A stretch of 64,000 nucleotides of DNA from Candidatus Kryptoniota bacterium (GTDB lineage Bacteria; Bacteroidota; Ignavibacteria; Kryptoniales; JAKASW01): contig JBJKPN010000083.1 of assembly GCA_046706365.1 (NCBI GenBank), positions 7,541 to 71,540 on the forward strand, read 5' to 3'. The translations under genes and the position numbers were made by a program. Positions within the stretch are counted from its first letter, which is position 1. Each line of letters begins with the position of its first letter. The notes below the pieces were generated by a model. It worked only from the letters and a program-made list of their open reading frames with translations. It did no database searches and was not told where the DNA came from. Positions 32,745 to 48,044 of the stretch are shown here, piece after piece.

Positions 32745-33422
32745 GTGAAAAAGGACAACAGGCGTGCATATTTCCCAATTCTCATAGATCTCAGGAGATA
32801 CCCGTGCCTCGTGGTTGGCGGCGGGCGTGTCGCATTGCGAAAGGTAATGTCGCTCCTCGAATTCAATGCTAAGGTGACTGTGGTTGCGCCCAGAATCTGC
32901 AAAGAGCTCGCCCGGCTCTCTGCCGGCGGTCGGATCGACGTTATCAGGACTCCTTATTCCAGGAAGCACATCTCCGGGCACAAGATCGTGTTCAGCGCAA
33001 CTGACAATCGTGAGATAAATGAAGCCGTGAGCCGCGACTGCCGCAATGAGGGTATTCTGATGAACGTTGCGGATGCTCCTGACCTGTGCGATTTCATCAT
33101 GCCGGCCACTTTGAAGCGTGGAGACCTGGTCGTTTCGGTTTCTTCGCAGGGACGGGCTCCATTTTACACTAAGCACACGAAGCGGAAACTCGAAAAAGTC
33201 CTTACGCCTTCCGAGGCCGAGATAACGGAACTGGCAGGTTACTTCAGGAATCGATTACTGTCGAAGGAGAACAGCGATATATCACGGAGGACCAAAGATA
33301 TCGCGATCAGGAAATTCCTCTCAACAGATTGGGTGTCGATCATAGCGGCAGGAGGAAGCAAGAAAGCGCATGAGTTTGCGGATAGACTCCTCAAAGAAGT
33401 GAATAAGCAGAAGGATCTTTAG
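32745..33422 (+). CDS. sirC: Siroheme synthase N-terminal-domain type enzyme (precorrin-2 dehydrogenase / sirohydrochlorin ferrochelatase)
   Basis: 225 aa. YFPILIDLRRYPCLVVGGGRVALRKV Rossmann motif, NVADAPDLCDFIMPA and LVVSVSSQGRAP blocks as in the CysG N-domain, SirC and Met8. GTG start. Confidence 0.85.
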   Translation: MKKDNRRAYFPILIDLRRYPCLVVGGGRVALRKVMSLLEFNAKVTVVAPRICKELARLSAGGRIDVIRTPYSRKHISGHKIVFSATDNREINEAVSRDCRNEGILMNVADAPDLCDFIMPATLKRGDLVVSVSSQGRAPFYTKHTKRKLEKVLTPSEAEITELAGYFRNRLLSKENSDISRRTKDIAIRKFLSTDWVSIIAAGGSKKAHEFADRLLKEVNKQKDL

Positions 33423-33430
33423 GTGCTCAT

Positions 33431-34018
33431 ATGAACGGTTCTTCGCAGCATCTCAAGGCGAAAGTAATATTCTCACTGTCGACGATAATTGTTCTGATCC
33501 TCTGCAGCGGTGCACTCGCCTGGGTGATAACGCAGCGTATCGAGCAGAGCGAGAGGACGACGGACACGGCACACATGTTCAAGGAAGCCGAGCTCCAGCT
33601 GAGAAGAGAGGAGAAGAACCTTTTGATAAGGGGTTATTCGGCGGAGAGATTTCATCGCTGGCAGGAGGCGAAAGGTGAGTTCTATCAAAAGCTCGGAGAG
33701 CTGATCGGGCAGAAGGCGGTCAGCGATGTCGAAATCGCCGAATTCAAGTCGGACAATTCGGAAATGTCCGATGCATACAGGAGTTTCTTCGATGACATCA
33801 AGTCCGGGACACTGACCGAGACGGAGGCAGCGGCATATGACCTGCATTTCAAGACAATCGGCCAGAGGTCTATAGGAAGAATCGACAGCATTCTTGCAAG
33901 GGAAGAAAGTATTTCAAAAGGCATGGATTCGAGGGCAAATCTGTTGACCGCGGTTTTCTTCCTCGTCTTCATAGGGACAACTTCATTTCTGGTCATCAAC
34001 GTACTGAGGAGTCTGTGA
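33431..34018 (+). CDS. Hypothetical two-TM protein with a helical periplasmic (sensor-like) domain and no output domain
   Basis: 195 aa. TM near the N-terminus (VIFSLSTIIVLILCSGALAWVI) and at the extreme C-terminus (LLTAVFFLVFIGTTSFLVINVL). About 130 aa of helix-prone sequence lie between them. The stop overlaps the cobA start (GTGA). Confidence 0.6.
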   Translation: MNGSSQHLKAKVIFSLSTIIVLILCSGALAWVITQRIEQSERTTDTAHMFKEAELQLRREEKNLLIRGYSAERFHRWQEAKGEFYQKLGELIGQKAVSDVEIAEFKSDNSEMSDAYRSFFDDIKSGTLTETEAAAYDLHFKTIGQRSIGRIDSILAREESISKGMDSRANLLTAVFFLVFIGTTSFLVINVLRSL

Positions 34019-35331
34019 CAGTGAAGTACCGTAAAGGAAGAGTGTATTTGGTGGGGGCCGGTCCCGGCGATCCCGGGCTGATCACCGTGAAAGGCCTCGA
34101 AAAGCTGAAACAGGCGGATGCAGTGGTCTACGACAGGCTGGTAAACGACGACTTGCTTTGCTATTGCCGGGAAGATTGCGAGAAAATTTTCGTCGGAAAA
34201 GAAAGTGGATTCCACCCTGTCGAGCAGGAACAGATAACCGAAATACTGATACGGAAGTCCGAGCTCGGTTTGGATGTCGTGCGGTTGAAGGGGGGCAACC
34301 CCTTCATATTCGGAAGAGGCTCGGAAGAGGCAATTGCCCTGGCTCGTGCAGGGATCGACTTCGAAATCATCCCGGGAATCACTTCGGGACTGTCGGCGCC
34401 GGTCTACAGCGGTATACCGATAACCCACCGAGGCATGATAACTCAGTGTGTTCTGATTACGGCACATGAATCGCCCGGCAAGCCGGGCACCCAGGTGGAA
34501 TGGGATAAACTGGCGAAGCTGAAGAATTCAACCCTTGTCATTTATATGGGAGCATCCAGAATTGAAAACATCTGCAGAGAGCTGATCAGTCACGGGGCAG
34601 ACCCGTCAACTCCTGCGGCAGTCATTGAAAACGGCACCCTTCCCAGTCAGCGAACGATCACTGCGAGGCTCGACAATATCGCCGATGAATTCAAGGCGAA
34701 CGGTTTCCATGCTCCGGCAATAATAATGATCAGCCCGACCGTAGCCATGAGGAATGAGATATCCTGGTACGAAAACAAGCCGCTGTTCGGGAAGAGGATT
34801 GCACTTGTCGGGAACAGGAATCAGCTAGAATTGCTGAGTAGTATGGTTTACGACCTCGGCGGAGAGCCGCTGCGGATTCAACTGTCGAATCCGGATTCAC
34901 TACGCACCCTGTTCCACGGCGGCGTAGAGAGCGAGGAGGAGATCTTTTGCGCAAACGACGAATTCCCTTCAAACGGCCCTCGCTACCCGTATGAAGGTTT
35001 GAATGATAACCAACTCCCGCTGGTTTCAGTGCAGAGAACGGCGGATCAATTATACGAGGAACCCCGTGCAGACATAATCGAAGATCTGTGCGAAAACGGT
35101 GCTGATGCGTTTGTATTTGCCTCCTCAAAGGCGGCAGAGAGCTTCTTCGATACTTTGGGACGACCAAAAGGAACGAAGATGATCGAACATACTGCCGTCG
35201 TGGCGGTGAGCAGGGCCGCTGCAAATTTATTGGCCGAGAGCGGCTTGCGCGCGATCAGATACCCCTCGGACTGCACCGCGGGGGCCCTTCACGATTTGCT
35301 TCTGAACCTTTTTTCCAATACTCAGGAATGA
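34015..35331 (+). CDS. cobA/hemD: Uroporphyrinogen-III C-methyltransferase fused to a HemD-like (uroporphyrinogen-III synthase) C-terminal region
   Basis: The N-terminus GRVYLVGAGPGDPGLITVKG is the SUMT signature, and VVRLKGGNPFIFGRG is present. About 190 extra C-terminal residues start at KPLFGKRIALVGNRN and resemble HemD. Confidence 0.8.
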   Translation: MTVKYRKGRVYLVGAGPGDPGLITVKGLEKLKQADAVVYDRLVNDDLLCYCREDCEKIFVGKESGFHPVEQEQITEILIRKSELGLDVVRLKGGNPFIFGRGSEEAIALARAGIDFEIIPGITSGLSAPVYSGIPITHRGMITQCVLITAHESPGKPGTQVEWDKLAKLKNSTLVIYMGASRIENICRELISHGADPSTPAAVIENGTLPSQRTITARLDNIADEFKANGFHAPAIIMISPTVAMRNEISWYENKPLFGKRIALVGNRNQLELLSSMVYDLGGEPLRIQLSNPDSLRTLFHGGVESEEEIFCANDEFPSNGPRYPYEGLNDNQLPLVSVQRTADQLYEEPRADIIEDLCENGADAFVFASSKAAESFFDTLGRPKGTKMIEHTAVVAVSRAAANLLAESGLRAIRYPSDCTAGALHDLLLNLFSNTQE

Positions 35332-36407
35332 ACGTATTCAGCATCTACCTGCCAGCAGCGGGTATTCACTTCAATGCTCTCCTGTTGCTCCTGATCGGAT
35401 TCTGCGTCGGTGTAATCGGAGGGTTCTTTGGAGTGGGAGGCGGTTGGATAATCACTCCCGCACTCAACATTTTCGGATTTCATATGGCGTTCGCGATCGG
35501 GACGGGGCTGTCCGATATATTCGGACAGTCACTCGGGGCGATACGCAAACACAATCGAATGGGCAATGTCGACTGGAAGCTCGGATCATTTTCGATTGTC
35601 GCCTCGCTCATCGGATTCGAAGCGGGTTCCCGAATCGTGATGGCGCTCGAAAGAGCCGGCGATGTCGGAACAATTGTCCGGTGGTGTTACGTCGTATTCC
35701 TGGCGGGCCTCGGCGCCTTCATGTTCTATGACTATTTCGTTTTGCACGGCCGACAACTTGAACGCATCGAGAAAGGACTGACTGAGGCAGGCACTTCTGC
35801 AGACGGGACATCCGGCCCGGCCAGCGTCGCGAAGAAACTTCATAACATCAAGCTCGCTCCCATGATCTCCTTCCCGGATTCAAATATCGAGAAGGTTTCG
35901 CTTTGGGTAATTATCGCAATTTTCCTCGGCACGGGACTCCTCTCGGGTGTACTCGGGATCGGAGGAGGTTTCATAATACTTCCGGCGCTGGTTTACCTGA
36001 TAGGCGTCCCCACGGTTATAGCCGTTGGCACCACCCTTATGACAGTGCTTGCAACCGCTGCGTTCGGATGTTTCTCGTATGCACTTGACGGAAAAGTGGA
36101 AATGCTTGCCGCCGTACTGATGCTCCTCGGTGCATCTATCGGAGCCCAGATCGGGGCAACCGCCATCAAGTTCATCAAAGGTTACGGCATCAGGCTGCTA
36201 TTCGCGATAATGATCGTCTTCACGAGTTTCTCCGTCATAACGGAGCAGTTCTACAAGATGACTCTGGAATCGATATTCCGCGTGTTCTCAGGGATCATCC
36301 TGGTCGGGACGGCATTGGCCATGACTGTGACGATAATCTCGAAGCTGGTAACCGAATTCAGGAAAGAGAACGCGGGCAAGTCGGGAATCACAGACAGGGC
36401 TTCATAA
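35328..36407 (+). CDS. TSUP-family (TauE/SafE, DUF81) membrane protein, array copy 1
   Basis: 359 aa. Duplicated DUF81 GxGGG motifs. The ATG overlaps the cobA/hemD stop (ATGA). Confidence 0.85.
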   Translation: MNVFSIYLPAAGIHFNALLLLLIGFCVGVIGGFFGVGGGWIITPALNIFGFHMAFAIGTGLSDIFGQSLGAIRKHNRMGNVDWKLGSFSIVASLIGFEAGSRIVMALERAGDVGTIVRWCYVVFLAGLGAFMFYDYFVLHGRQLERIEKGLTEAGTSADGTSGPASVAKKLHNIKLAPMISFPDSNIEKVSLWVIIAIFLGTGLLSGVLGIGGGFIILPALVYLIGVPTVIAVGTTLMTVLATAAFGCFSYALDGKVEMLAAVLMLLGASIGAQIGATAIKFIKGYGIRLLFAIMIVFTSFSVITEQFYKMTLESIFRVFSGIILVGTALAMTVTIISKLVTEFRKENAGKSGITDRAS

Positions 36408-36423
36408 AAAGCAGAGTGGGATT

Positions 36424-37461
36424 GTGAGCATAATTAACATTCATCTGCCGGTAGCGGGGATCGAGTTTAGTGCGGTCCTACTGATACTCATCGGTTTCTG
36501 CGTCGGAGTACTCGGCGGATTCTTCGGAGTTGGTGGAGGATGGATGATAACTCCGGCTCTGAATATTTTCGGTTTTCATATGGCATTCGCGATCGGCACT
36601 CCTCTGGCGGATATCTTCGGACAATCTATCGGAGCCGTAAGGAAGCACCACAAGATGGGAAATATCGACTGGAAACTGGGGCTGATTTCCATCACTACCT
36701 CCATTATCGGTGTGGAGATTGGCTCGAGAGTGATAATCGCCCTCGAGAAGGAGGGAGATGTTGGGTTAATCGTGAGGTGGTCATACATCTTTTTGCTCCT
36801 GGTTCTCGGCGCATACATGCTCTACGACTATTTCGTGATTCATCCGAGACAGTTGACTATTGAAGGCAGCGGGCAATTGCCGGGCACAACGAGGTTTGCG
36901 GCCCGCTTGCAAAGAATTACTATACCTCCCATGCTCTCCCTGCCGACTTCCGGAATAGACGGGGTTTCGCTTTGGATCATCCTATTTGTTTTCCTGATCA
37001 CAGGTTTTCTCTCCGGGTTCATGGGTGTTGGAGGCGGCTTCATTATCCTCCCTGTACTCGTATACCTTATCGGCCTTCCCACCACTATTGCCGTCGGGAC
37101 GAGCCTGGTCACAGTTCTGTTCACCGCAGCGTATGGGTGCTTCACCTACGCCATAAAAGGGCGGGTCGAGATCATCGCGGCATTCATTATGCTGCTCGGC
37201 GCATCGGTCGGCGCCCAGGTCGGTGCAACTGCGATTAGATATATCAAAGGATACGGCATACGGCTCCTTTTTGCCACGATGATAATCCTTGCGGGCTTTT
37301 CCATCATAACTGAACAATTCTACAAAACCACGGGTAAGCCGTTGTTCCAGACCCTTGCCGGCATCGTCCTCATGGGCACGGCGGTGGCAATGTCTGCTCT
37401 CATCATTGTCAGGCTGGTGAGAGAATCCAGAAGAGAGCGGTCGACAGCGGAGTCTGCATGA
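36424..37461 (+). CDS. TSUP-family membrane protein, array copy 2
   Basis: 345 aa. Same conserved blocks as copy 1. GTG start 16 nt after copy 1. Confidence 0.85.
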   Translation: MSIINIHLPVAGIEFSAVLLILIGFCVGVLGGFFGVGGGWMITPALNIFGFHMAFAIGTPLADIFGQSIGAVRKHHKMGNIDWKLGLISITTSIIGVEIGSRVIIALEKEGDVGLIVRWSYIFLLLVLGAYMLYDYFVIHPRQLTIEGSGQLPGTTRFAARLQRITIPPMLSLPTSGIDGVSLWIILFVFLITGFLSGFMGVGGGFIILPVLVYLIGLPTTIAVGTSLVTVLFTAAYGCFTYAIKGRVEIIAAFIMLLGASVGAQVGATAIRYIKGYGIRLLFATMIILAGFSIITEQFYKTTGKPLFQTLAGIVLMGTAVAMSALIIVRLVRESRRERSTAESA

Positions 37462-37494
37462 CAAACCCGATTGAATTTCAAGACGACTTGTCCT

Positions 37495-38562
37495 ATGAGC
37501 ATTTTTGATATTCGTTTGCCCGTTGCAGGAATTGAATTCAGCGCTTTGCTGCTGATACTTATCGGGTTTTGTGTCGGCGTGCTCGGCGGGTTCTTTGGTG
37601 TCGGCGGAGGGTGGATTGTGACCCCGGCGCTGAACATTTTTGGTTTCCACATGGCGTTCGCTATCGGGACCGATCTGGCCAACATTTTCGGTCAATCAAT
37701 CGGTGCAGTGAAGAAACACCAGAAGATGGGGAACATCGACTGGAAACTCGGTTCCATTTCCATAATCACATCCGTTATCGGTCTCGAAATGGGCTCCGAT
37801 GTGGTTATTGCGCTCGAGAAAGCCGGAGATATAGGCATCATCATAAGATGGTGCTACATGTTCATGTTAAGCGTGCTGGGGTGCTACATGCTGTACGACT
37901 ACTTCGTCCTTCGAAAGAGGGCCAGGAAAGACAGCGGCACAGCGTCTGAAGACGGGGACGCGCTCAATACGGGCAGCGTCGAGAATCGAAGCAAGGTTTC
38001 GAAGAGGCTTCACAAATTGAATATACCGCCGATGATCTCGTTCCCTTCCTCGGGAATCGAGGGAGTCTCACTCTGGATCATACTTCTCATCTTTCTCTTT
38101 ACCGGATTCATGTCCGGTTTCATGGGAGTTGGGGGTGGGTTCATCATCATGCCGGCCCTGGTCTACCTCATAGGTCTCCCGACGGCAGTTGCGGTCGGGA
38201 CGAGCCTGATAACGGTGCTGTTCAGCGGAGCCTACGGGTGCTTCACCTACGCTATGAAGGGACGCGTGGAAGTAATTGCCGCGTTCATAATGCTGATCGG
38301 CGCTTCCATAGGAGCCCAGATCGGCGCGACGGCAGTCAGGTATGTTGAAGGATACGGGATCAGAATACTTTTTTCGCTGATGATTCTGCTCGCGGCCGTT
38401 TCGGTCGCTGCGGAGCAGCTGTACAAGATCACCGGAAGGGCGCTCTTTCAATCCACCGCCGGGATAGTGCTGATGGGAACCGCCGTGGCAGTATCGGCTG
38501 CGATAATCGGCAAGCTGGTCGTGAAATCAAGGAAAGAAGCAAAAGACAGGGCAACACACTAA
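37495..38562 (+). CDS. TSUP-family membrane protein, array copy 3
   Basis: ATG 37495 (MSIFDIRLPVAGIEF...) aligns with the N-termini of the other copies. The track ORF starts at TTG 37471. Confidence 0.85.
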   Translation: MSIFDIRLPVAGIEFSALLLILIGFCVGVLGGFFGVGGGWIVTPALNIFGFHMAFAIGTDLANIFGQSIGAVKKHQKMGNIDWKLGSISIITSVIGLEMGSDVVIALEKAGDIGIIIRWCYMFMLSVLGCYMLYDYFVLRKRARKDSGTASEDGDALNTGSVENRSKVSKRLHKLNIPPMISFPSSGIEGVSLWIILLIFLFTGFMSGFMGVGGGFIIMPALVYLIGLPTAVAVGTSLITVLFSGAYGCFTYAMKGRVEVIAAFIMLIGASIGAQIGATAVRYVEGYGIRILFSLMILLAAVSVAAEQLYKITGRALFQSTAGIVLMGTAVAVSAAIIGKLVVKSRKEAKDRATH

Positions 38563-38583
38563 ATTCACTAACAGGGCTGAAGC

Positions 38584-39636
38584 ATGAATCTCTTCGACAT
38601 CTACTTACCGATCGCAGGAATAGAGTTCAATGTTCTGTTGCTCATTCTGATCGGGTTCTGCGTTGGAGTACTCGGCGGGTTTTTCGGAGTCGGCGGAGGT
38701 TGGATTGTCACTCCCGCTCTCAACATCTTCGGATTCCATATGGCATACGCAATCGGAACTGATCTGGCCAATATCTTCGGGCAGTCCATAGGTGCCACCA
38801 AGAAACATCACAAGATGGGAAATATCGACTGGAAACTCGGTTCCATCTCGATCGTCGCATCGATCGTAGGTCTCGAACTCGGCTCACAGCTCGTGATAAG
38901 GCTCGAGCACGCGGGCGACGTCGGATCTGTAGTCAGGTGGTGCTACCTGTTCCTCATGTTCGGACTCAGCACATTGATGTTTCGCGATTATTACAAGTCG
39001 CATCCGAGGCAGAAGCACGGCGCGACAGCGTCCGGGAGGGATAATTACCCGGGGCCGCGGAAGGGCGGGAAAACGCTTGCCGAAAGACTCCACAGCATAA
39101 ACATTCCTCCGATGATATCGTTTCCGACATCGGACATTCAATCGGTTTCCCTGTGGACTGTCATGTTCATATTTGCGGTGACCGGCTTTCTTTCCGGGTT
39201 CCTGGGGGTCGGAGGAGGATTCATTAGAATGCCGGCTCTCGTTTACCTCATAGGAGTGCCGACAGTAATCGCAGTGGGGACCGACCTGATGACGGTTTTG
39301 ATCACAGGTGCGTACGGCTGCTTCACCTACGCGATGAAAGGAAGAGTTGAATTCATCGCAGCCTTTTTCATGCTGATCGGCGCTTCGATCGGCGCCCAAA
39401 TCGGGGCAACGGCCGTCAAATACGTGAAAGGATACGGGATCAGGCTGCTCTTCGCAATAATGATTGCGTTTGCAGGATGCTCGATAGCACTTGAGCAGCT
39501 CTACAAAATGACCGGTGAAGAAGTCCTGGGTACGGCAGCGGGACTGGTTCTCATGCTGACTGCTGTAACGCTGACTTCTATTATTATTTTAAGGCTCACG
39601 GTTGAAGCCCGTAAAGAGAGGAAGATGAGAGGCTGA
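38584..39636 (+). CDS. TSUP-family membrane protein, array copy 4
   Basis: 350 aa. MNLFDIYLPIAGIEFNVLLLILIGFCVGVLGGFFGVGGGW... Confidence 0.85.
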   Translation: MNLFDIYLPIAGIEFNVLLLILIGFCVGVLGGFFGVGGGWIVTPALNIFGFHMAYAIGTDLANIFGQSIGATKKHHKMGNIDWKLGSISIVASIVGLELGSQLVIRLEHAGDVGSVVRWCYLFLMFGLSTLMFRDYYKSHPRQKHGATASGRDNYPGPRKGGKTLAERLHSINIPPMISFPTSDIQSVSLWTVMFIFAVTGFLSGFLGVGGGFIRMPALVYLIGVPTVIAVGTDLMTVLITGAYGCFTYAMKGRVEFIAAFFMLIGASIGAQIGATAVKYVKGYGIRLLFAIMIAFAGCSIALEQLYKMTGEEVLGTAAGLVLMLTAVTLTSIIILRLTVEARKERKMRG

Positions 39637-39715
39637 AATGGATTCAGAAGAGTCAAGAGATATTCATACATTAGAAAACACCAAAGCCAACAACAGGCTT
39701 CGGAAGGAGCGGACC

Positions 39716-40039
39716 ATGTCAATCAAGAGGACGGTTTCCATAGTGGCGTTTTCTTTCGTGCTGGTATGCGCCATGCCTTACGCAGAAAGATTGTGTGCCA
39801 GCGCGTACGCGAGCGAGATCGGAGGCAAGAGCGAATCGTCGCTTCAGAAGAGGATAGACACAAAGAACATGACGGGAGTCGACCTGCTGATCGCCAACCT
39901 GTACAACGATGACAGATTAATGTACGCAGTCATGGTAACGCTGGTCATGGCCGGGCTCGGCACAACCCTGGCCTTTCTGACCGATCTCGTCCTGAAGATG
40001 CTGGGCGTCGAGGTAACGCGGATTTCTCATCGAGAGTGA
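39716..40039 (+). CDS. Small hypothetical protein: signal peptide plus a single C-terminal TM helix
   Basis: 107 aa counted from ATG 39716, which has an AAGGAG site 6 nt upstream. MSIKRTVSIVAFSFVLVCAMPYA is signal-like. The C-terminal hydrophobic helix is YAVMVTLVMAGLGTTLAFLTDLVL. The track ORF starts at 39638. Confidence 0.55.
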   Translation: MSIKRTVSIVAFSFVLVCAMPYAERLCASAYASEIGGKSESSLQKRIDTKNMTGVDLLIANLYNDDRLMYAVMVTLVMAGLGTTLAFLTDLVLKMLGVEVTRISHRE

Positions 40040-40162
40040 ACAGATGACCCTCATTGCGGCCGTGCCGTCAGGCATCAGAAAAGGGCGTCCCCGCAGATCT
40101 CACCGGGAAGCCCGCACTACTTCCGATGAATACCGCGGTTCAGGCCGGACGGGCAAAGGCGA

Positions 40163-41704
40163 ATGAAAAAAGTCAAGTCCCTGAGTATATCCACACGTAT
40201 TTCCCTGCTGCTGGGATTGATCATCCTTGTTACTATGGGCACGTTCTCGATTTTCAGCCTCGTGAAACAGGAACAAGATTCCGTGGACTCTCTGAGCCGC
40301 AGTACTCTTTTGCTCAGTCAGACTACCGAGAAGATACTTAGACTCAGCATGTTGAAAAACCGGCGCGACGAAATTTCCATGGCGATAAAGAGCATCGTCG
40401 GAGAAGAGGGGATCCAATCCGTAAGGATTCTCAACCATAACGGTGTTATCAAGTTCTCCTCCAGGCAATCGGAAATCGACGAACATATCTCGAGAACAAA
40501 TCAGCTTTGCTCCAACTGCCACGTTGAAAACGACACCGCCATGATCCACCCCGTCAGTGGTTTTTACAGCTATCACTTCAACCACAAGAACGATATGATT
40601 TACAGTTCCCTTCCAATCTATAACTCACGAAGCTGCTATACGGGGGACTGTCATGCGACCGGGGCGAACGAGGCGTCGGTCGCACCGCCTGACTTGACGG
40701 CCCGAGCCGTCCACGATTCGTCGCAGACCATACTCGGATTCATAGAGATAGAAGTGTCCGCGAAAGAGATAATGTCCAACATCGACAGGACCCGTTCGGA
40801 GCTCATCCTGCTCACTGTACTAATAGCTCTCCTTGCGTCGACCGTCGCTTACTTTTCCATACGACGACTCGTCGGGAATCCCGTCAGGAAGCTTGTCGAG
40901 GGAACGAAGAGAGTCGCACAAGGAGATTTCGGCAGCGAGATTCCTTCCGGCGAAGCTGAAATAGGAATCCTCGCGGATTCGTTCAACACGATGCAGAGGC
41001 AGCTCCTTGCCACCCAATCGCAGTTGATTGAATCGGAGAAACTCGCTTCGGTCGGCAAACTGGCAGACGAGATCGCAAGCGAAATAAACAATCCCCTGAC
41101 AGGGATAATAGTCTATTCGGAAAGCCTGATCGAAGAATCGGAACCCGGGACACATGTCAGGGAAGATTTCGAAGTGATTCTTCAGGAAGCGCTCAAGATA
41201 AGGGAAAGCGTCAGAAACATCCTGTCGCTTGCGAGGAAGGAAAAACCGATCTTCGTGCCCGTCGAACTCGACGGCATAGTCAATCACGCAGTCTCGATTC
41301 TGAAGAAGCTCTCGAATTTCAGGAACATCAGGATAGTTACGGCCATTCCCCGGGTATTCCCGAAAGTGTCTGCGGATCCGGGACTCCTGCAACAGGTTTT
41401 CCTCAACCTGTTTCTTGTCTTCGCGGACAACATGCGGACCGGTGGAATACTGAGGGTTTCTGCTTCGCATCTCGAGCAGGAAGGAGCAGTGGAGATAAGG
41501 CTTTCAGCTACCGGTGGGGAGATATCCTGGCATATTATGGATGCCTTGTCTGAACAGGGTGCCGTCGACGATGCAGGCCACATCGAAAAGTCAAGGATCA
41601 GTCTTTCAGTTTGCCGGGATATCGTCGCGCTTCACAGGGGAAGAATTTACGCAAGCGTAGAATCGGAAGCGGAGCCCTCCGTGGTTATAGAGTTGCCTGC
41701 GTAA
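40163..41704 (+). CDS. HAMP-containing sensor histidine-kinase-like protein. The periplasmic domain carries CxxCH and Cx4CH motifs. The kinase core is degenerate (probable pseudokinase)
   Basis: 513 aa. TM1 at aa 12-33 and TM2 at aa 213-233. CSNCH at 40508-40522 and CYTGDCH at 40634-40654. HAMP after TM2. The H-box reads LASVGKLADEIASEINNPL, with Ser (AGC 41078-41080) where His is expected. N-box QVFLNLFLVFADNM, G1 LSATGGEI and G2 KSRISLSV all lack the consensus N, D and G residues. Confidence 0.8.
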   Translation: MKKVKSLSISTRISLLLGLIILVTMGTFSIFSLVKQEQDSVDSLSRSTLLLSQTTEKILRLSMLKNRRDEISMAIKSIVGEEGIQSVRILNHNGVIKFSSRQSEIDEHISRTNQLCSNCHVENDTAMIHPVSGFYSYHFNHKNDMIYSSLPIYNSRSCYTGDCHATGANEASVAPPDLTARAVHDSSQTILGFIEIEVSAKEIMSNIDRTRSELILLTVLIALLASTVAYFSIRRLVGNPVRKLVEGTKRVAQGDFGSEIPSGEAEIGILADSFNTMQRQLLATQSQLIESEKLASVGKLADEIASEINNPLTGIIVYSESLIEESEPGTHVREDFEVILQEALKIRESVRNILSLARKEKPIFVPVELDGIVNHAVSILKKLSNFRNIRIVTAIPRVFPKVSADPGLLQQVFLNLFLVFADNMRTGGILRVSASHLEQEGAVEIRLSATGGEISWHIMDALSEQGAVDDAGHIEKSRISLSVCRDIVALHRGRIYASVESEAEPSVVIELPA

Positions 41705-41705
41705 C

Positions 41706-42101
41706 ATGGCTGAAAAGGTAAAAATACTCGCCATCGACGGAGAGGATATAGTCCTCAGGTCGATAGCTAAGGCGCTCAGGCCGGACGAGAATACCGAGTA
41801 CGCAGTGACAACCGCAAACAATGCGATCGAAGGCCTTAAATTGGTGCGGGGCAATGTGTTTGAGGTGATATTCGTCGATTCCGTTCTGGCCGGCATGAAT
41901 ACCGAGGAAGCATTACGGAGAATCAAGAACACCTGCCCATCCGCCTCGGTTATTTTAATGTCCGGCTATTCGTCCCAACCCTCTGGCGTCGACCGGGACT
42001 TCGGAGATGCGGATGGCCTGCTGTCCAAGCCTTTTTCGGGTTCGGAGATTAGGTCCCTGATATCACGTATATTAAATGAGCGCAAAGGTCGAAGTGAATA
42101 G
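41706..42101 (+). CDS. Stand-alone response-regulator receiver domain
   Basis: 131 aa. KILAIDGEDIV (DD pair reduced to DG), IFVDSVLAGM (D58 acceptor), VILMSG (S86), LSKPF (K108). No output domain. Confidence 0.8.
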   Translation: MAEKVKILAIDGEDIVLRSIAKALRPDENTEYAVTTANNAIEGLKLVRGNVFEVIFVDSVLAGMNTEEALRRIKNTCPSASVILMSGYSSQPSGVDRDFGDADGLLSKPFSGSEIRSLISRILNERKGRSE

Positions 42102-42148
42102 AGTGAAGATTCGCATCCAGAACCCTGCGCGCAAGCACGAGAGAGTTC

Positions 42149-44800
42149 GTGACGATATTCAAGAATATATTCAGCCGAAAAAGAGCCGAACCGGTTTCGT
42201 TCAAGGATAAGCTCCATCACTTCCAGCGGCTTCTATTTTCCAACGACGAGGCCCTGAAACTAATGGGGAGTCTCAGCGAAATCATAGTTTCGGGAAAGCC
42301 ATTCTCAAAAGGGGACATATTTCCATTCTATTCCGATATACTGACAAATATCGAACAGGTGACCCGGCACCTTTCAGCCATGTGCGGCGGCAGATACAGG
42401 ACGCTTGCCTCCCGGGTTAAAAAGATTAGGGCAGACTGCGATAGCCAACTCGCGCCCGCTCCGTTTTGTCAGGAAAGGTGGGCGTGTGAAAAGGCCAATT
42501 GTGACGGGTGTGAAAAGCGGTCATATCCTGTCCAGGACTCGCCATACTCTTACCGCGTGGACGAGATAACTTACAACCACACACGTGAAGTCGGCGGCAA
42601 GATGAGCCGGCTTTGCGAGGTACATAACCGGTTGGATATTCCCGTCCCGGACGGATTTTGCCTCACGGCCAAGTGTTTCGAAGACTTCCTATCGCAGGAT
42701 GAATTGTATTCAAAGATTGACGAAGCTATATCGTCCATCGATTTCAACGATAATGCCCAGGTCCAGGAGGCGAGCCGGATCATCCAGGCGCTCATCGTGG
42801 CCTCTCCTATTCCGCCCATCATCGAAAGCACCGTTCTCGAAGAATACGATCGCCTTTCGGCCAGGCGCGGTGAGACTCTTGTAGCCGTCAGGTCAAGTGC
42901 CGTCGGGGAGGACGACCTGCATTTTTCGTTTGCCGGATTGCATTATACCGCACTCAATGTAAGCAGGGCTAATCTGGTCGACGCCTGCTTCGAAGTAATG
43001 ATCTCGAAATACCTGCCGCAGTCGCTGGTCTACCGATATATGATGGGCCTCAGAGATGTCGATATGCCTATGAGTATCGGCTGTATGCAGATGCTGGACT
43101 CCGAAGTCAGCGGGGTTCTCTTCACGAAGGACCCTCTGAGAAACAGGGATGAAATAATCATCCAGGCGGTAAGAGGTCTCGGGACTAAAGTGGTTGACGG
43201 AAGCGTGGAGGCACAGGAGTTCATAGTGGAACATTCTGAAAACTGCAGGATGCTTTCGTTCAAGCCCGGCAACCAGGATTATATGGCGACAGCCCGCCCC
43301 ACAGACGGACTGTACGACGAGCAGGTACCCGCCGAATTGAGACGCAAGCCATGTTTGGATGGGAACCAAATCAGGCAGATCGTGGGATACGCTCTCAGGA
43401 TAGAAGAATACTACGGTTCGCCGCAGGATATCGAATGGGCTATCGACGAGGACGGCAAAGTTTACATTCTGCAGTGCAGGCCTCTCGCGGTTTCAGAAGA
43501 GGCAGGCAACCACGAAGAAACAGGACCTCTATCGGAATCAACAGATGTGGAGCGTACTGCATTAATCGACAAGGGCGAATGCGCCAGTCCGGGAATCGGG
43601 TCGGGCAAGGTTTTCCTTTCAAACAGGTCAAGGGATCTTGTGAATTTCCCAACAGGGGGCGTTCTGGTTGTCAGAAAGACCTCACCGGAGTTGACCAGAG
43701 TTCTCCACAAAGCTGCAGGACTTATCGCGGATGTAGGAAACACGACAGGCCATCTTTCAATCATTGCCCGGGAATTGAAAATACCTGTACTTGTGAATAC
43801 GGGCGATGCTACTTCCCGCCTTTCGAACGACATGCCGATAACTGTCGACGCCGGCGCCCACAAGGTCTACCTCGGACTCGAAACACCTGCCCGGCCAGCG
43901 GATTCAGGAAATGTCAATTCGAGCAGCTTCATGCGGAGCCCGATGCACAGAGTATGGAAAAACATAGCCGAGTCGATAATACCTCTCAACCTGACCGATC
44001 CCGACTCTCCTGAATTCTCGCCGGACCACTGCAGGACATTGCACGATGTGACGAGGTTTGCACACGAGTATGCAATGAGGGAGATGTTCTCGCTTTACGA
44101 AGCCGCTGAGGATCAAGACAGGCAGGCATTCCCATTGAGGTTCCCCGTCCCCCTGGACGTCTACGTCATCGACCTCGGAAACGGACTTCAGAAAATAGAA
44201 GGACGGAAGTTCATCACCCCTGAAGACATCACATCCGAACCGTTCAGCTCACTAATCAAAGGGATGACGGCACCCGGCGTCAAGTGGGCGGGGCCGCTCC
44301 CGATCGACCTCAAAGGCTTTACAAACCTTCTGATGGCAAATATCGTCGATGCCGGAAGAAGCGATAGGGCTCTCGGCGGCAGGAGTTACGCGATCATCTC
44401 AGACTGCTACCTGAATTTCTCTTCGAGACTCGGATATCATTTCTCGCGCCTTGACGCTTACGCGAGCGAAGAGATCAACAATAACTATATCAACTTCGAC
44501 TTCCGGGGCGGCGCCGCGGATCCTTTGAGAAGAGTGAGAAGGGCCAGAGTCATAGCAAGGATTCTCGAGCGCTCCAATTTCTCTGTCACCCTGCAGAACG
44601 ACAATGTCCTTGCAACCATAAGGAAGATCTCCGCTTCGGCTATCTACGAGCTGCTGCACGAGATCGGAAGATTGATGGGTGCGGTACGAAATGCCGACGT
44701 TACGCTGATTACTGACGACAGCATAGAACAATTCGTCAACGCTTTTCTCAGCGGAGACCCGGCTCCCGCTATGCGGTTCACCGAAAGGCCTCCTGGCTGA
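42149..44800 (+). CDS. PpsA-like enzyme: Cys-rich N-terminal extension, PPDK_N ATP-grasp domain, PEP-utilizer swivel phosphohistidine domain, about 310-aa C-terminal domain of unknown function
   Basis: 883 aa. GGKMSRLCEV..IPVPDGFCLT, VAVRSSAVGEDDLHFSFAGLHYTALNV, QDIEWAIDEDGKVYILQCRPL (ATP-grasp). LIADVGNTTGHLSIIARELKIPVLV (swivel His). I recognise no PEP-utilizers_C TIM-barrel motifs in the last about 310 aa. N-terminal motif CQERWACEKANCDGCEK. GTG start. Confidence 0.75.
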   Translation: MTIFKNIFSRKRAEPVSFKDKLHHFQRLLFSNDEALKLMGSLSEIIVSGKPFSKGDIFPFYSDILTNIEQVTRHLSAMCGGRYRTLASRVKKIRADCDSQLAPAPFCQERWACEKANCDGCEKRSYPVQDSPYSYRVDEITYNHTREVGGKMSRLCEVHNRLDIPVPDGFCLTAKCFEDFLSQDELYSKIDEAISSIDFNDNAQVQEASRIIQALIVASPIPPIIESTVLEEYDRLSARRGETLVAVRSSAVGEDDLHFSFAGLHYTALNVSRANLVDACFEVMISKYLPQSLVYRYMMGLRDVDMPMSIGCMQMLDSEVSGVLFTKDPLRNRDEIIIQAVRGLGTKVVDGSVEAQEFIVEHSENCRMLSFKPGNQDYMATARPTDGLYDEQVPAELRRKPCLDGNQIRQIVGYALRIEEYYGSPQDIEWAIDEDGKVYILQCRPLAVSEEAGNHEETGPLSESTDVERTALIDKGECASPGIGSGKVFLSNRSRDLVNFPTGGVLVVRKTSPELTRVLHKAAGLIADVGNTTGHLSIIARELKIPVLVNTGDATSRLSNDMPITVDAGAHKVYLGLETPARPADSGNVNSSSFMRSPMHRVWKNIAESIIPLNLTDPDSPEFSPDHCRTLHDVTRFAHEYAMREMFSLYEAAEDQDRQAFPLRFPVPLDVYVIDLGNGLQKIEGRKFITPEDITSEPFSSLIKGMTAPGVKWAGPLPIDLKGFTNLLMANIVDAGRSDRALGGRSYAIISDCYLNFSSRLGYHFSRLDAYASEEINNNYINFDFRGGAADPLRRVRRARVIARILERSNFSVTLQNDNVLATIRKISASAIYELLHEIGRLMGAVRNADVTLITDDSIEQFVNAFLSGDPAPAMRFTERPPG

Positions 44801-44843: not shown

Positions 44844-45983
44844 CTACGGGACCTCGCACTGCAATTGAACCTCGAGAATGTCTCCTGCCCGATTGTCCCT
44901 CCCTCTCCAAATGAGATAGTTGCCCTGCACTCTGACATTTGAAGCGATCAGATACGTAGCTCCGAAAACATAGTCCGTCGAAATCATGTCACGCATGCTC
45001 ACATCGGGATTATAAGTGTCGAAGCGGGCGGCGATCTGCAAGTCTCTCCCGGCCACATAATAGGCGGCCTGCAAGTACCCTCCCCTGCGACTTATCGCCC
45101 CGTCATTTCCGCCGATATACTCCCCGGAGATTTCGAGTGGAGAGTCAGCATAGTCAAACTCGAGTCCGAAGCGAGTCCTCCTGCCGCTGACAGGAGGGCT
45201 GCCCCACACATCAAAACCGTCGTAGTAGGAAACCCCGACATGTATCTCCCGGACGGGTTGGATCACAATTCTCCCGCAAAAATCCTTTGCGTCGTTCCTG
45301 TCCGGCACGTTTATGCCGGAGCCGTTGAAGACACCTGCGGCATATTCCAGCGAGGACGTGCTGTCGCAGCCGGCAAGTCTTCCGCCGACTTGCACTCCGA
45401 CATCCCGCCCGGACTGATTCCCGGCAACGTCGCCACTTCGGGCCACCAAAGACTCCACAACCTGGGAGCGGTCTATGAAATCGAGTCTGGCCGAAGACAT
45501 CAGGTTTTCCCTGGAAAAGGGAATCTTAAATTGGCCGGCCTTCACACGCAAGAACCGAAACGGCGAATAGTCGATATAAGCGTCGAGCAATCTGGGGGAT
45601 GCGGCAAAATCGGCCTGAAAGAAGTAGGACCATGGCTCCGTCACCCTGCCGGCCAGGCTAAACCTCATTCGCCTTATGTCTGCGCTGCTGATCCGGGACG
45701 TATCACCGTCCGATAGTTGATACCTGAGTTGGACATAACCGCCGAAGTGAGGAAGCAAGAGTGGCGCAGAAGATGGTGGGTTCCTTTTGTCTGTAGTGTC
45801 ACTGAAGGGCGAATCAACTTGAGGGTCCCCCGCTTTGCAACCGACCTCCAGTCCGGAGAGCTGAGAAAAGTCCGGCGCAAGGCGGGCGGGATTTGCCCCT
45901 GCACCGGCAGTTAAGAATGAGATTGCAACCGGGATGATCAGGTTAATTCGCATCGGATGATCCGGGAAGGAGATCGCGGGCAA
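44844..45983 (-). CDS. Phosphate-selective porin O/P (OprO/OprP) family outer-membrane anion porin
   Basis: FFQADFAASPRLLDAYIDYSPFRFLRVKAGQFKIPFSRENLMSSARLDFIDRS is a typical Porin_O_P block. The signal peptide begins at the internal Met (ATG 45953, MRINLIIPVAISFLTAGAGA), which is the likelier start. Confidence 0.8.
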   Translation of the reverse strand: MPAISFPDHPMRINLIIPVAISFLTAGAGANPARLAPDFSQLSGLEVGCKAGDPQVDSPFSDTTDKRNPPSSAPLLLPHFGGYVQLRYQLSDGDTSRISSADIRRMRFSLAGRVTEPWSYFFQADFAASPRLLDAYIDYSPFRFLRVKAGQFKIPFSRENLMSSARLDFIDRSQVVESLVARSGDVAGNQSGRDVGVQVGGRLAGCDSTSSLEYAAGVFNGSGINVPDRNDAKDFCGRIVIQPVREIHVGVSYYDGFDVWGSPPVSGRRTRFGLEFDYADSPLEISGEYIGGNDGAISRRGGYLQAAYYVAGRDLQIAARFDTYNPDVSMRDMISTDYVFGATYLIASNVRVQGNYLIWRGRDNRAGDILEVQLQCEVP

Positions 45984-46021
45984 GTCGAGCTGATTTCCTG
46001 CCGAAACGGATGACTGATGGG

Positions 46022-47219: not shown

Positions 47220-48044
47220 TCAAGGTTTTACACTTTGCGATGTCAGACGGGTGCCTGTCGGCCTGCCGCCGGATTTCACCCGCATCGTCTTGTCACCGAA
47301 CAGGCAGTACTTGAGCCATGTGATGCCGAACTTGAGCAGCTCTTCGTCATCCGATTTGATTTCGTTCACCAATTCCTCGTCCACTTCGAATCTTTCCAGA
47401 AAGCTGCTCCCAAAGACGAATTCTCTGAACTTATCTATGTTATAGCAGACGGTGTAAAACATTTCGAGCTTTGCCGGAGTAAGCTGCTTCTTCTCCTTGA
47501 AGAAATCGTGCAGCGAAAGTTCTTTGAACAGCTCCCCCATTTCCGAATAATGCTCGACCCCCTGGTCTGCTATCCAATCGGCCACCGTCCAGTCCTTCTG
47601 CTGCAAATATCCCTGACAGACCGACTCCTCGATCATGAAATAAAAATCTCTTTCGCCGCCCTCCCCACTCTCCTTCGGAGAGGCCACACCGAGCGGAAAC
47701 ATCCTGCAGGACCACGGTCGATCCTCATAAATGGAGCAGCCCTCGGACCGGACGAACGGACAGGACTTCCTCTCGTCGTCGTTCATCTTCAGCATGACCA
47801 CGGGGTGGTTCTGGCTCTCGTCGATGGGAAGGAACGTGTATTTGTCGAGGAATTCCTGCGATGAGATCTTCAGTCTGTTCTTCATCCGGATGATGTCATA
47901 CGGGGTCAGGAAGATGTTGACGTCGGTGCAACACATGTTGAAGCAGCTGATCCCTTTGTGGCAGCTGAACTTGAACCCGCTTTCCTTTTTCATGTGCGGA
48001 TAATCTTTCAGCACGGCCTCTTTCAGATTCTCAAGCTCTTTCAT
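47220..48044 (-). CDS. YkgJ/UPF0153-family cysteine-cluster (putative Fe-S or Zn) protein
   Basis: 274 aa. FSCHKGISCFNMCC near the N-terminus and CPFVRSEGCSIYEDRPWSCRMFP, the family hallmark. Lies 13 nt upstream of qmoC. Confidence 0.7.
   Translation of the reverse strand: MKELENLKEAVLKDYPHMKKESGFKFSCHKGISCFNMCCTDVNIFLTPYDIIRMKNRLKISSQEFLDKYTFLPIDESQNHPVVMLKMNDDERKSCPFVRSEGCSIYEDRPWSCRMFPLGVASPKESGEGGERDFYFMIEESVCQGYLQQKDWTVADWIADQGVEHYSEMGELFKELSLHDFFKEKKQLTPAKLEMFYTVCYNIDKFREFVFGSSFLERFEVDEELVNEIKSDDEELLKFGITWLKYCLFGDKTMRVKSGGRPTGTRLTSQSVKP

Follow-up and report, generated by a model that had tools for sequence, protein, structure and literature searches.

The new profile and synteny analyses indicate that positions 32745-44800 of the window, the whole 64,000-nucleotide stretch of Candidatus Kryptoniota DNA that was analysed, form a composite, operon-like module of two layers, and we put the probability that it serves sulfur-oxyanion transport under the control of a dikinase, a receiver and a haem pseudokinase at about 0.5. 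A redox-controlled module for the transport of sulfur oxyanions is the most likely reading. Specifically, the first layer appears to be ancient and shared by several phyla, with a DVU0150-family protein of two transmembrane (TM) helices, a TSUP (TauE) permease and a putative PpsA-family 'X, water dikinase' whose acceptor-side domain seems unique to its family, usually accompanied, to judge from the sequences, by a sensor histidine kinase (HK) and a receiver-only response regulator (REC). The second layer would belong to one sulfate-reducing Kryptoniota/Ignavibacteria lineage, in which the TSUP gene has apparently been amplified in tandem to 2-5 copies, the sensor replaced by a di-haem periplasmic pseudokinase, sirC-2TM-cobA included and the module placed beside sat-apr-qmo-dsr. 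The composition, order and conservation of the genes and the catalytic residues kept or lost are observed here.

All eleven plus-strand genes that the original prediction had reported for this region, joined by overlaps or gaps of at most 123 nt, were recovered as open reading frames at their places, and its domain calls were all upheld by Pfam and NCBIfam profile matches. From the 5' end, sirC lies 8 nt from the gene for a 2TM protein, which overlaps cobA by 4 nt; cobA in turn overlaps the first of four TSUP genes by 4 nt, and these are spaced by 16, 9 and 21 nt. The small membrane protein gene follows after 1 nt, or after 79 nt if it begins at the Met at 39716, the start used by homologues and the likely one here, and the remaining gaps measure 123 nt to the sensor, 1 nt from sensor to REC and 47 nt from REC to the dikinase. 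A simple scan, with Bacteroidota-type promoters outside its models, found neither promoter nor terminator in the 123-nt gap 5' of the sensor gene; an internal promoter could lie there, which counts against reading the region as a single module. Downstream, outside the cassette, a porin (Porin_O_P) and QmoC are encoded on the minus strand (44844..47206), and beyond the porin come qmoC-aprAB-sat-qmoBA and then dsrMKJOP. The module is convergent with these genes, tail to tail, and not back-to-back with them as had been claimed. The count of four TSUP genes also needs amending, since a fifth, divergent TSUP/TauE permease (31455..32357, plus strand; Pfam TauE 174.7 bits) lies upstream on the same strand as the module, 387 nt from sirC; it aligns with the array copies at 29% identity, and its orthologues are located elsewhere in related loci ('TauE5' matches).

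Conservation was assessed with the dikinase C-terminal domain as synteny anchor, which gave 248 relatives in GTDB species genomes; 80 loci were kept, and features were counted in the 63 whose upstream flank measured 6 kb or more. Within these 63 loci, TauE was present in 49, the DVU0150 family in 44, REC in 50, HK in 48 and the full module in 30, and the receiver and dikinase genes were adjacent or overlapping in 38. Because 30 or more species-level genomes show the same gene order, the arrangement is more than chance, which bears out the proposal of a conserved same-strand module. For a rough comparison, the entire D. vulgaris genome has nine TSUP genes (PMC5840216), so that a random 20-kb stretch would rarely be expected to hold one. 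The core recurs in Kryptoniota/Ignavibacteria, Kapaibacteria, Deferribacteres and Desulfobacterota. The full module is found in one sulfate-reducing FCB lineage, where it is nearly always convergent with qmoC-aprAB-sat-qmoAB, and of 27 full-module loci whose downstream flank was long enough to judge, 25 adjoin apr/sat/qmoC. With the DVU0150 family as an independent anchor, two matches were examined, including the most distant, and each has TauE and PPDK_N genes as well as HK-REC for neighbours. Variants of the cassette occur in Ignavibacteria (DVU0150-TauE-dikinase, with a divergent dikinase2-HK-REC), in Syntrophobacter (TauE-Alph_Pro_TM-Usp-CBS-dikinase-HK-REC-dikinase) and also in Deferribacteres. 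At one locus (L046), the cluster encodes a REC domain joined in one protein to a symporter of the DASS Na+/sulfate type, a fusion that hints that receivers here may act directly on anion transporters.

The four permeases of the array, all on the plus strand, are T1 (35328..36407), T2 (36424..37461), T3 (37471..38562, its real start probably the ATG at 37495) and T4 (38584..39636), which match the TauE profile at 148.8, 155, 158.8 and 161.5 bits against a cut-off of 32.6. T1 aligns with T2-T4 at 61-64% identity, and the order of the copies is partly kept across species. T4 appears to be the ancestral copy and the partner of the DVU0150-family gene; in nearly all core-only loci of FCB and Deferribacteres, the one TauE present is closest to it (50-58% identity). 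In sulfate reducers, TSUP proteins have been put forward as candidates for sulfate transport (PMC5840216). The next gene (39638..40039, plus strand) does encode a small membrane protein, as predicted, and the family can now be named: the product has a signal/TM helix, a periplasmic segment, a second TM helix and a conserved C-terminal ...ISHRE tail, a precomputed Pfam PF28216 annotation is attached to exactly this DVU0150-family protein (P0269), and it reaches only 42 bits with the NCBIfam model NF040783, below the cut-off of 70.

At the 5' end, SirC is of the precorrin-2 dehydrogenase/siroheme synthase N-terminal type (32745..33422, plus strand; NAD_binding_7 114.5 bits; TIGR01470 cysG_Nterm 138.5 bits, cut-off 62.3). 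CobA (34015..35331, plus strand) is a uroporphyrinogen-III C-methyltransferase (TP_methylase 171 bits; TIGR01469 289.8 bits, cut-off 185) with a partial HemD-like C-terminal extension (HEM4 36 bits, partial, model positions 25-111 of 231), and its orthologues range from CobA alone (259 aa) to reading frames of up to about 1.64 kb. Between them, a 195-aa protein (33431..34018, plus strand) with a long helical stretch between two terminal TM helices has no Pfam or NCBIfam match even at E<=10; it keeps this position throughout the full module, and its orthologues in full-module loci score 170-310 bits. Because sirC-2TM-cobA is confined to one lineage and absent from all core-only loci, the siroheme genes are not a defining part of the system, in disagreement with the original prediction.

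The membrane sensor (40163..41704, plus strand) consists of TM1, a periplasmic domain, TM2, HAMP, a HisKA-like DHp domain and a degenerate ATP-binding domain, with a HATPase_c match of 25.4 bits, under the 26.4 cut-off. Its H-box, IASEINNPL, has Ser at the phospho-acceptor His site; of 35 orthologous sequences, 32 carry Asn, Ser, Tyr or Lys instead of this His, the N-box has lost its Asn and the boxes for ATP binding have degenerated. Two haem-c motifs, CSNCH (CxxCH) and CYTGDCH (Cx4CH), lie between the two TM helices; C116, C119, H120, C158, C163, H164, H184 and M63 do not vary, H92 is conserved to 90% or more, and the best match of the periplasmic fold is a weak one to sCache_4 (E 0.012). 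The suspected haem-motif pseudokinase is borne out by these residues, and it appears to be a genuine, evolutionarily maintained one with two conserved haem-c motifs. Known examples are DivL of Caulobacter for pseudo-histidine kinases, and DcrA of D. vulgaris and GSU0582/GSU0935 of Geobacter for periplasmic haem-c sensors. As in DivL, the HisKA-type DHp domain lacks the phospho-His, and two orthologues share with DivL a Tyr at this site; as in DcrA and GSU0582/GSU0935, CxxCH motifs sit in a periplasmic domain between two TM helices. However, the sensor is unrelated in sequence to DivL and DcrA, the resemblance being one of logic only, and its family differs from these haem-c sensors in having two motifs, CxxCH plus Cx3-4CH. 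The stand-alone REC protein (131 aa; 41706..42101, plus strand; Response_reg 48.6 bits) keeps the acceptor Asp, as expected: no motif variant listed for 36 aligned orthologues lacks VD (Asp58), S/T86 or KPF (Lys108), and the second acidic-pocket residue is variable (D-[K/G/R/S]-E).

The dikinase (883 aa; 42149..44800, plus strand; PPDK_N 280.8 bits, PEP-utilizers (mobile His) 66.5 bits) comprises an N-terminal three-helix bundle with a Cys4 loop, ATP-grasp and swivel-His domains and a family-specific C-terminal domain of ~290 aa. Its description as PpsA-like stands for the ATP-grasp motifs and swivel His, at least 95% conserved among 218 sequences, but the C-terminal domain is not of the PEP type; Pfam searches found no PEP-utilizers_C domain. 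Like PEP synthase, pyruvate phosphate dikinase (PPDK) and rifampicin phosphotransferase (Rph), the enzyme has ATP-grasp and swivel phospho-His domains with all hallmark motifs, so that the chemistry, ATP -> AMP + Pi + X-P, would most likely be the same. Unlike PEP synthase and PPDK, it lacks the PEP/pyruvate TIM-barrel domain, and unlike these and Rph, its acceptor-side domain forms a separate ~290-aa family (1117 clusters), for which an AF2 model (pLDDT 83.8) gave no PDB fold match and no structural relative hinting at the acceptor. It further differs from Rph in domain order and from the superfamily in the extra N-terminal bundle, with the Cys4 loop in the FCB clade.

The nearest studied relative by composition is the Desulfovibrio 'nitrate cluster' (DVU0251-DVU0245 / Dde_0597-Dde_0605; Korte et al. 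2014, PMC4001038), which contradicts the earlier statement that no described system has this composition. Like the window cassette, it belongs to a sulfate reducer and combines a TauE/TSUP permease, a HAMP sensor kinase, a receiver-only response regulator and a PPDK_N/ATP-grasp/mobile-His dikinase whose published domains likewise include no PEP/pyruvate C-terminal domain, a likeness of published domain composition and not of measured homology (PMC4001038). Transposon insertion in the TauE, the receiver or the dikinase gene leads in each case to nitrate resistance, and the G20 mutants are mildly impaired on thiosulfate; the authors guess at a leaky thiosulfate transporter (PMC4001038). The kinase there is dispensable or decayed (PMC4001038), which recalls the degenerate sensor of the window. 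Only the nitrate cluster has a PtxB-like periplasmic binding protein, a DSP phosphatase and DUF169 (G20); it has one TauE and not an array, is without a DVU0150-family gene and siroheme genes, has no reported haem motifs and, unlike the window module, is not described as adjacent to sat/apr (PMC4001038). A second described system pairs DVU0150 with the TSUP gene DVU0149 in one sigma-54 operon (PMC4641369, supplement file 5). This DVU0150-DVU0146 operon, which is up in syntrophic growth versus sulfate reduction in D. vulgaris, shares with the window a DVU0150-family protein next to a TSUP permease, there immediately upstream, and a HAMP-containing regulator and a response regulator (DVU0151, DVU0145), which flank it (PMC4641369, PMC4265775). 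Unlike the window cassette, it is controlled transcriptionally, via a sigma-54 enhancer-binding protein, and it has two lipoprotein genes and no reported dikinase (PMC4641369, PMC4265775). In D. desulfuricans, genes for a small hypothetical protein, a sigma-54 regulator and a 'pyruvate phosphate dikinase' are numbered consecutively, which is a hint only (PMC5701242).

These features are consistent with a mechanism in which the TSUP array would carry a sulfur oxyanion (sulfate, thiosulfate or sulfite) through the inner membrane to serve the dissimilatory pathway encoded next door, and the DVU0150 protein would be an accessory subunit of the array; the transport substrate, its direction and every phosphotransfer step are what we infer. 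The dikinase would autophosphorylate its swivel His from ATP and pass the phosphate via its C-terminal domain to an acceptor needed for transporter function, and the receiver may dock on and gate the dikinase and/or the transporter. The pseudokinase, presumably incapable of autophosphorylation, would set the state of the receiver as a haem-redox-controlled phosphatase or scaffold, like DivL.

A tenable though doubtful alternative is that the dikinase is a metabolic enzyme that phosphorylates a small molecule, with TSUP importing the substrate or exporting the product (trapping or salvage), the two-component proteins regulating expression or activity, and no protein phosphorelay through the dikinase. 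All characterised superfamily members are known to phosphorylate non-protein acceptors (pyruvate, rifampicin, glucan, prodigiosin precursors, phenol) through an acceptor-specific domain, and the window enzyme has partial NCBIfam matches to PpsA, Rph, PigC and RedH, all under cut-offs. The polar set that is invariant in its C-terminal domain across the 218 sequences (HD..R..HE, R.GYH, F.GGAA..RR.RR) includes motifs rich in Arg and in Gly, as would befit the binding of an anionic ligand, and the dikinase is tightly linked to TSUP, yet the neighbourhood offers no candidate substrate and many loci hold two or three paralogous dikinases. The like phenotypes of Desulfovibrio permease, receiver and dikinase mutants fit a single functional unit as well as a pathway.

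It is unlikely that the dikinase replaces the dead kinase, handing phosphate from ATP via the swivel His to Asp58 of the receiver (or to the transporter) and leaving the pseudokinase as a redox-controlled phosphatase or scaffold only. The loss of the kinase His and ATP-binding boxes beside a receiver that keeps its Asp58, Ser86 and Lys108 motifs, the conserved ATP-grasp and swivel His, the receiver-dikinase adjacency and the ExxN motif of HisKA phosphatase activity, retained beside the lost His (SEINNPL / NEINNPL), all speak for such a transfer. So does D. vulgaris, where the kinase gene DVU0248 is a pseudogene and mutation of the receiver or the dikinase gene nevertheless confers nitrate resistance (PMC4001038). 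However, every non-haem kinase found beside this dikinase family is canonical (GVAHEINNPL, intact N-box, DxGxG); the dikinase is therefore older than the kinase loss, with another job, and not in general a kinase substitute. The invariant His/Asp/Arg constellation of its C-terminal domain suggests a dedicated acceptor site, and in several full-module genomes a second, canonical HK-REC-TauE set next door could supply phosphate. We know of no reported transfer from a swivel His to a receiver Asp.

Mere juxtaposition of siroheme, transporter and orphan signalling genes beside a sulfate-reduction island is highly improbable: the restriction of sirC/cobA to one lineage, a full-type locus (L022) in which HK and REC are both absent, and the dikinase relatives that stand alone (about half of those in Desulfobacterota, with no TauE within 10 kb) would suit it, but the core trio keeps its order and orientation across FCB lineages and Deferribacteres, the TauE-dikinase association reaches Desulfobacterota, gene junctions overlap or measure 1 nt, and the Desulfovibrio mutants have a common phenotype (PMC4001038).

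Taken together, the preferred reading of a redox-controlled transport module builds on a TauE-HK-receiver-dikinase composition that was already known in Desulfovibrio, with the TSUP array, the di-haem pseudokinase and the siroheme genes as its variant features here. As such, the cassette resembles a poorly understood Desulfovibrio cluster whose loss renders sulfate reducers nitrate-resistant.

Architecture of the module and its genomic surroundings

ORF calling in the window confirms the eleven-gene module of the original prediction, with all eleven ORFs present on the plus strand between 32745 and 44800, and profile searches against Pfam and NCBIfam uphold every one of its domain calls. The host belongs to the FCB group, as a bacterium of the Kryptoniota/Ignavibacteria type. 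The sirC gene is followed after 8 nt by the gene of a two-TM (2TM) protein, which overlaps cobA by 4 nt, and cobA in turn overlaps by 4 nt the first of four TSUP genes (T1 to T4, separated by 16, 9 and 21 nt). A single nucleotide lies between the array and the gene of a small membrane protein; 123 nt further on begins the sensor gene, separated by 1 nt from the receiver gene (REC), which ends 47 nt ahead of the dikinase gene. The module sits beside the genes of dissimilatory sulfate reduction: tail-to-tail with it stand a porin gene and then qmoC, the genes of a CxxCxxCC protein and a Zn-finger protein, aprAB, sat, qmoBA and dsrMKJOP.

Several further genes of the surroundings deserve mention. 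The CxxCxxCC-domain and Ogr/Delta-type zinc-finger proteins of the qmoC-aprA interval (47220-48455, minus strand) are kept as a pair in L001, one of the loci from the scan of GTDB species genomes. A Cytidylate_kin2 (cytidylate-kinase-like) gene on the minus strand (55957-56826) adjoins and overlaps the qmoA ORF, and it recurs beside a TauE gene (L001:15945-17447) and between the dikinase and histidine kinase (HK) genes of a Deferribacteres locus (L060:11134-11964). Upstream of the module, the minus strand holds a 2127-aa ORF (22719-29102), and other sulfur-related genes of the window encode a PAPS-reductase-domain protein (1288-2184, minus strand) and an arylsulfotransferase with a T9SS sorting tail (20083-22416, plus strand). 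No Rfam family matched anywhere in the window, and scans for sigma-70 promoters and terminators, with models that are not of the Bacteroidota type, gave no clear excess in the module region.

Siroheme genes, permeases and their small partner

At the head of the module, SirC (138 bits on cysG_Nterm) and CobA both score above their NCBIfam cut-offs. The C-terminal extension of CobA (34777-35331) is a partial HemD that matches only positions 25-111 of the 231 of the HEM4 model, which makes a HemD function doubtful; orthologues range in size from a bare CobA of 259 aa to ORFs as long as ~1.64 kb. The 195-aa 2TM protein has one TM helix at either end and no Pfam match at E<=10.

The four array permeases are full-length TauE proteins (PF01925; 148.8-161.5 bits, cut-off 32.6), and a fifth, divergent TauE gene lies upstream of the module on the plus strand (31455-32357; 174.7 bits against the same cut-off of 32.6). 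Complete modules among the best 80 of 248 GTDB loci hold 2 to 5 TSUP copies, with the order of the T1-T4 paralogues partly conserved. Since the lone TauE of nearly all FCB and Deferribacteres loci that carry only the core, without siroheme genes, is nearest to T4, this copy is the ancestral one and T1-T3 are its tandem duplicates.

The module's small membrane protein (39716-40039 from its likely start) is a probable member of the DVU0150 family (NF040783 / PF28216). Its NCBIfam NF040783 score of 42.2 bits lies under the cut-off of 70, and the Pfam search at E<=10 gave no match; the precomputed Pfam annotation PF28216 is carried by this exact protein and by its homologues. In the window and in the full modules the gene immediately follows the last TSUP gene; in core-only loci it lies upstream of TauE, as in the DVU0150-DVU0149 pair of D. 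vulgaris (PMC4641369 supplement); adjacency is thus common to the module and D. vulgaris, whereas the gene order of full modules is reversed. Across the window protein and its orthologues, a short cytoplasmic tail is strongly conserved (...V(S/T)(R/K)ISH(R/H/S)E), and the invariant His close to its C-terminus may act as a ligand or undergo modification.

A dikinase with a family-specific C-terminal domain

The last gene encodes an 883-aa protein with a PPDK_N domain (280.8 bits) and a mobile His domain (PEP-utilizers, 66.5 bits). Alignment of 218 family members reveals the conserved motifs VRSSA..ED..SFAG, QD.EW, LQ.RP and G..TGH....ARE, with the ATP-grasp motifs and the swivel His of the last motif at least 95% conserved. 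For the C-terminal domain (residues ~590-883) there is no Pfam model: residues 575-883 gave no Pfam match, PEP-utilizers_C included, even at E<=10, matches in a PDB sequence search with the dikinase end near residue 580 to 622 and leave this domain without a relative, and its AF2 model (pLDDT 83.8) has an alpha+beta fold that is not a TIM barrel and found no fold match in a Foldseek search of the PDB (best E 0.03, TM at most 0.22). The domain family comprises 1117 clusters (50% identity, E<1e-3), 559 of them at <1e-30, and almost all members share the 830-890-aa architecture. Its residues HD..R..HE, R.GYH and F.GGAA..RR.RR are invariant in the 218 sequences and look like a binding or catalytic site.

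A true PEP synthase or PPDK can be rejected because the dikinase lacks the PEP/pyruvate TIM-barrel domain; its score against the NCBIfam PpsA equivalog is 333 bits, under the cut-off of 598. A rifampicin phosphotransferase (Rph) is likewise rejected, on domain order as well as on score: the alignment with NF041857 (184 bits, cut-off 999) is confined to the ATP-grasp part, and the His domain precedes the C-terminal domain, whereas the order in Rph is ATP-grasp, rifampicin-binding, His. The enzyme is thus best described as a PpsA-type 'X, water dikinase' with a putative acceptor domain.

At its N-terminus, the first 100 residues form a three-helix bundle of a generic type, for which no informative match was found. 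After the bundle, at residues ~100-125 (within 42149-42590), follows a Cys4 loop, C-x5-C-x4-5-C-x2-C, a possible site for a metal or an Fe-S cluster. Of 116 full-length close homologues, 114 have the loop, against one of 101 more distant representatives; it is almost confined to the FCB clade.

A putative di-haem pseudokinase and an intact receiver

The sensor combines a periplasmic domain of ~180 aa, flanked by two TM helices, with HAMP, HisKA and a sub-threshold HATPase_c domain (25.4 bits against a cut-off of 26.4). The periplasmic part carries the motifs CSNCH and CYTGDCH and gave just a weak sCache_4 match in Pfam at E<=10. C116, C119, H120, C158, C163, H164, H184 and M63 never vary among 30 aligned orthologues, and H92 is conserved in at least 90% of them, a pattern expected of two covalent c-type haems with their axial ligands; both haem motifs, the candidate axial ligands and the periplasmic location show no variation in this alignment.

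In the H-box of the sensor, IASEINNPL, Ser306 occupies the position of the phospho-acceptor His, and in 32 of 35 aligned sensors this column holds Asn (28 sequences), Ser, Tyr or Lys, the phospho-His being kept in the same column only in the loci L060, L061 and L063. The ExxN motif adjoining the lost His is retained. The N-box has another residue in place of its Asn (FLNLFLVFADN / FLNLLLISSES), and degeneration extends to the G boxes, with a G1 box of SATGGE or xDTGKx. As phospho-His, N-box Asn and G boxes are degenerate across the orthologues, the sensor is a conserved pseudokinase rather than a recent wreck. The kinases found next to this dikinase family in other lineages are all canonical (GVAHEINNPL, N-box, DxGxG).

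The neighbouring 131-aa protein is a receiver domain alone. Asp58, Ser/Thr86 (Ser86 in the window) and Lys108 are present in every listed motif variant of 36 aligned orthologues, in which one acidic-pocket position varies. Judged by their motifs, dikinase and receiver are intact in this lineage and the kinase is dead, with its haem motifs conserved. In L001 (12689-15898, minus strand) the module converges on a second, canonical HK-REC-TauE set (TauE of 369 aa), which also occurs in L032, L036, L039 and L064, from several Ignavibacteriaceae genomes, and is absent from the window.

Distribution of the cassette

One genome per GTDB species was scanned for the C-terminal domain with an eight-sequence alignment as query, which yielded 248 relatives; the best 80 loci were analysed with 10-kb flanks, and all window proteins were searched against their six-frame ORFs. 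Among the 63 of these best 80 loci whose upstream flank is 6 kb or longer, 49 hold a TauE gene, 44 a DVU0150-family gene, 50 a receiver and 48 a kinase, the haem-type sensor being present in 35 and sirC or cobA in 31. The complete module in the same order occurs in 30 loci, and in five others the flank ends too soon. Downstream sequence is long enough in 27 of the complete modules, and 25 of these have qmoC/apr/sat facing them. Loci beyond the sulfate-reducing FCB clade retain the core but have no siroheme genes. As no core-only locus carries them, the siroheme genes were rejected as a defining part of the system.

The form of the cassette varies between lineages. In Ignavibacteria and Kapaibacteria, DVU0150-TauE-dikinase is accompanied by a divergent dikinase2-HK(dCache-PAS)-REC; the Deferribacteres locus reads dikinase2-QmoC-like-DVU0150-TauE-dikinase-Cytidylate_kin2-HK-REC; and in Syntrophobacter and Desulfobacterales the arrangement is TauE-Alph_Pro_TM(-Usp-CBS)-dikinase-HK-REC-dikinase. 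Of the Desulfobacterota dikinase relatives among the best 80 of 248 loci, about half stand alone. With the DVU0150 family as an independent anchor, two hits were looked up, one of them the most distant, and both lie beside TauE, PPDK_N genes and HK-REC. In one cluster (L046), ordered CBS - REC::DASS - REC - HK - DVU0150 - TauE - dikinase, a receiver is fused to a DASS Na+/sulfate-type symporter (2716-4494; Response_reg + Na_sulph_symp, 593 aa), which suggests that receivers control anion carriers directly.

Some loci call for separate comment. Size and hit pattern make the same REC::DASS fusion likely in L047 and L058. In the Desulfobacterota-type loci L077, L078 and L085, the TauE partner is an Alph_Pro_TM (PF09608) membrane protein, not a DVU0150-family member, and an Alph_Pro_TM::PPDK_N gene call in L085 may be a fusion or a mis-call. 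L046, L055 and L068 hold typical Ignavibacteria/Kapaibacteria-type cassettes, yet their MAGs are labelled 'Hyphomicrobiales', which is probably mis-binning or mislabelling.

Counterparts in Desulfovibrio

The original prediction knew of no described system with this composition. That claim is not correct, because Korte et al. (2014) had already published a nitrate cluster of D. vulgaris (DVU0251-0245) and D. alaskensis G20 (Dde_0597-0605) that shares it by description of its domains (PMC4001038). That cluster encodes a TauE permease, a conserved hypothetical protein, a PtxB-like binding protein, a HAMP/PAS kinase, a receiver-only regulator, a PPDK_N/ATP-grasp/mobile-domain dikinase and a DSP phosphatase, and its kinase is a pseudogene in D. 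vulgaris (PMC4001038). Nitrate resistance results from insertions in each of the permease, receiver and dikinase genes, thiosulfate reveals a mild impairment of G20 mutants, and Korte et al. proposed a leaky thiosulfate transporter (PMC4001038). The two systems are alike, by published domain composition, in the co-location of TauE, HAMP kinase, receiver-only regulator and PPDK_N/mobile-domain dikinase (PMC4001038 Table 3); they differ in the PtxB-like protein and the DSP phosphatase, neither of which is found among the eleven module genes and their immediate neighbours.

The second counterpart is the sigma-54 operon DVU0150-DVU0149(TSUP)-DVU0148-0146, whose regulator is the HAMP-containing DVU0151 (PMC4641369) and which is up-regulated during syntrophic growth (PMC4265775). 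Searches for DVU0150-family homologues gave 5 matches with a single sequence and 46 with a profile, none from Desulfovibrio; a tblastn search of plasmids aimed at Desulfovibrio genes gave no match, and a search of one paper library found no later papers on these genes. TSUPs are among the candidate sulfate carriers of sulfate reducers (Marietou et al. 2018; PMC5840216). The kind of cassette is hence already known; new in this variant are a putative di-haem pseudokinase, an array of TSUP genes, a DVU0150 partner and genes of siroheme synthesis.

A working model and its alternatives

The module most likely serves in redox-controlled sulfur-oxyanion transport, a picture to which we give a probability of about 0.5. 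The TSUP array would carry a sulfur oxyanion for the adjacent pathway, and transporter function would require receiver and dikinase, as supported by the Desulfovibrio genetics and hinted at by the REC-DASS fusion. By binding the receiver or dephosphorylating it, the pseudokinase may signal the redox state of the periplasm. Candidate acceptors of the dikinase are a small anion, the transporter or its partner, and the receiver itself.

The first of these, a dikinase that phosphorylates a small molecule, is possible but rather improbable. The original prediction, partly supported overall, had the swivel His of the dikinase supply phosphate to the receiver or to the transporters. The relay to the receiver we consider unlikely: in its favour, the kinase has decayed in two lineages that kept receiver and dikinase, but kinases are canonical everywhere else and the dikinase has a dedicated acceptor domain. 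Distinctly doubtful is a joint reading in which the ATP-loaded swivel His phosphorylates the receiver Asp in place of the dead kinase, the di-haem pseudokinase serves as a phosphatase or scaffold under redox control, and the phospho-receiver directly gates the TSUP transporters that supply sulfur oxyanions to dissimilatory sulfate reduction; if true, this would establish a novel type of phosphorelay and, for the first time, a mechanism of TSUP regulation. TSUP, DVU0150-type partner and dikinase, usually with HK and REC, form a conserved cassette, and a pure juxtaposition of genes is very improbable.

Significance

The cassette bears on sulfate and thiosulfate uptake in sulfate reducers and on the cargo of TSUPs. 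The nitrate cluster gives one of the strongest nitrate-resistance phenotypes known for oil-field souring control, and the analysis places its composition within a cassette present in several phyla, so that two obscure Desulfovibrio clusters are tied to one multi-phylum cassette. It also defines a putative family-specific dikinase acceptor domain that has over 1000 sequence clusters but whose fold has yet to be solved, and makes testable which target the dikinase has (receiver, transporter or small anion) and whether receivers gate anion carriers directly. Finally, it identifies a lineage in which this cassette is amplified, fitted with a putative di-haem pseudokinase and set next to sat-apr-qmo-dsr.
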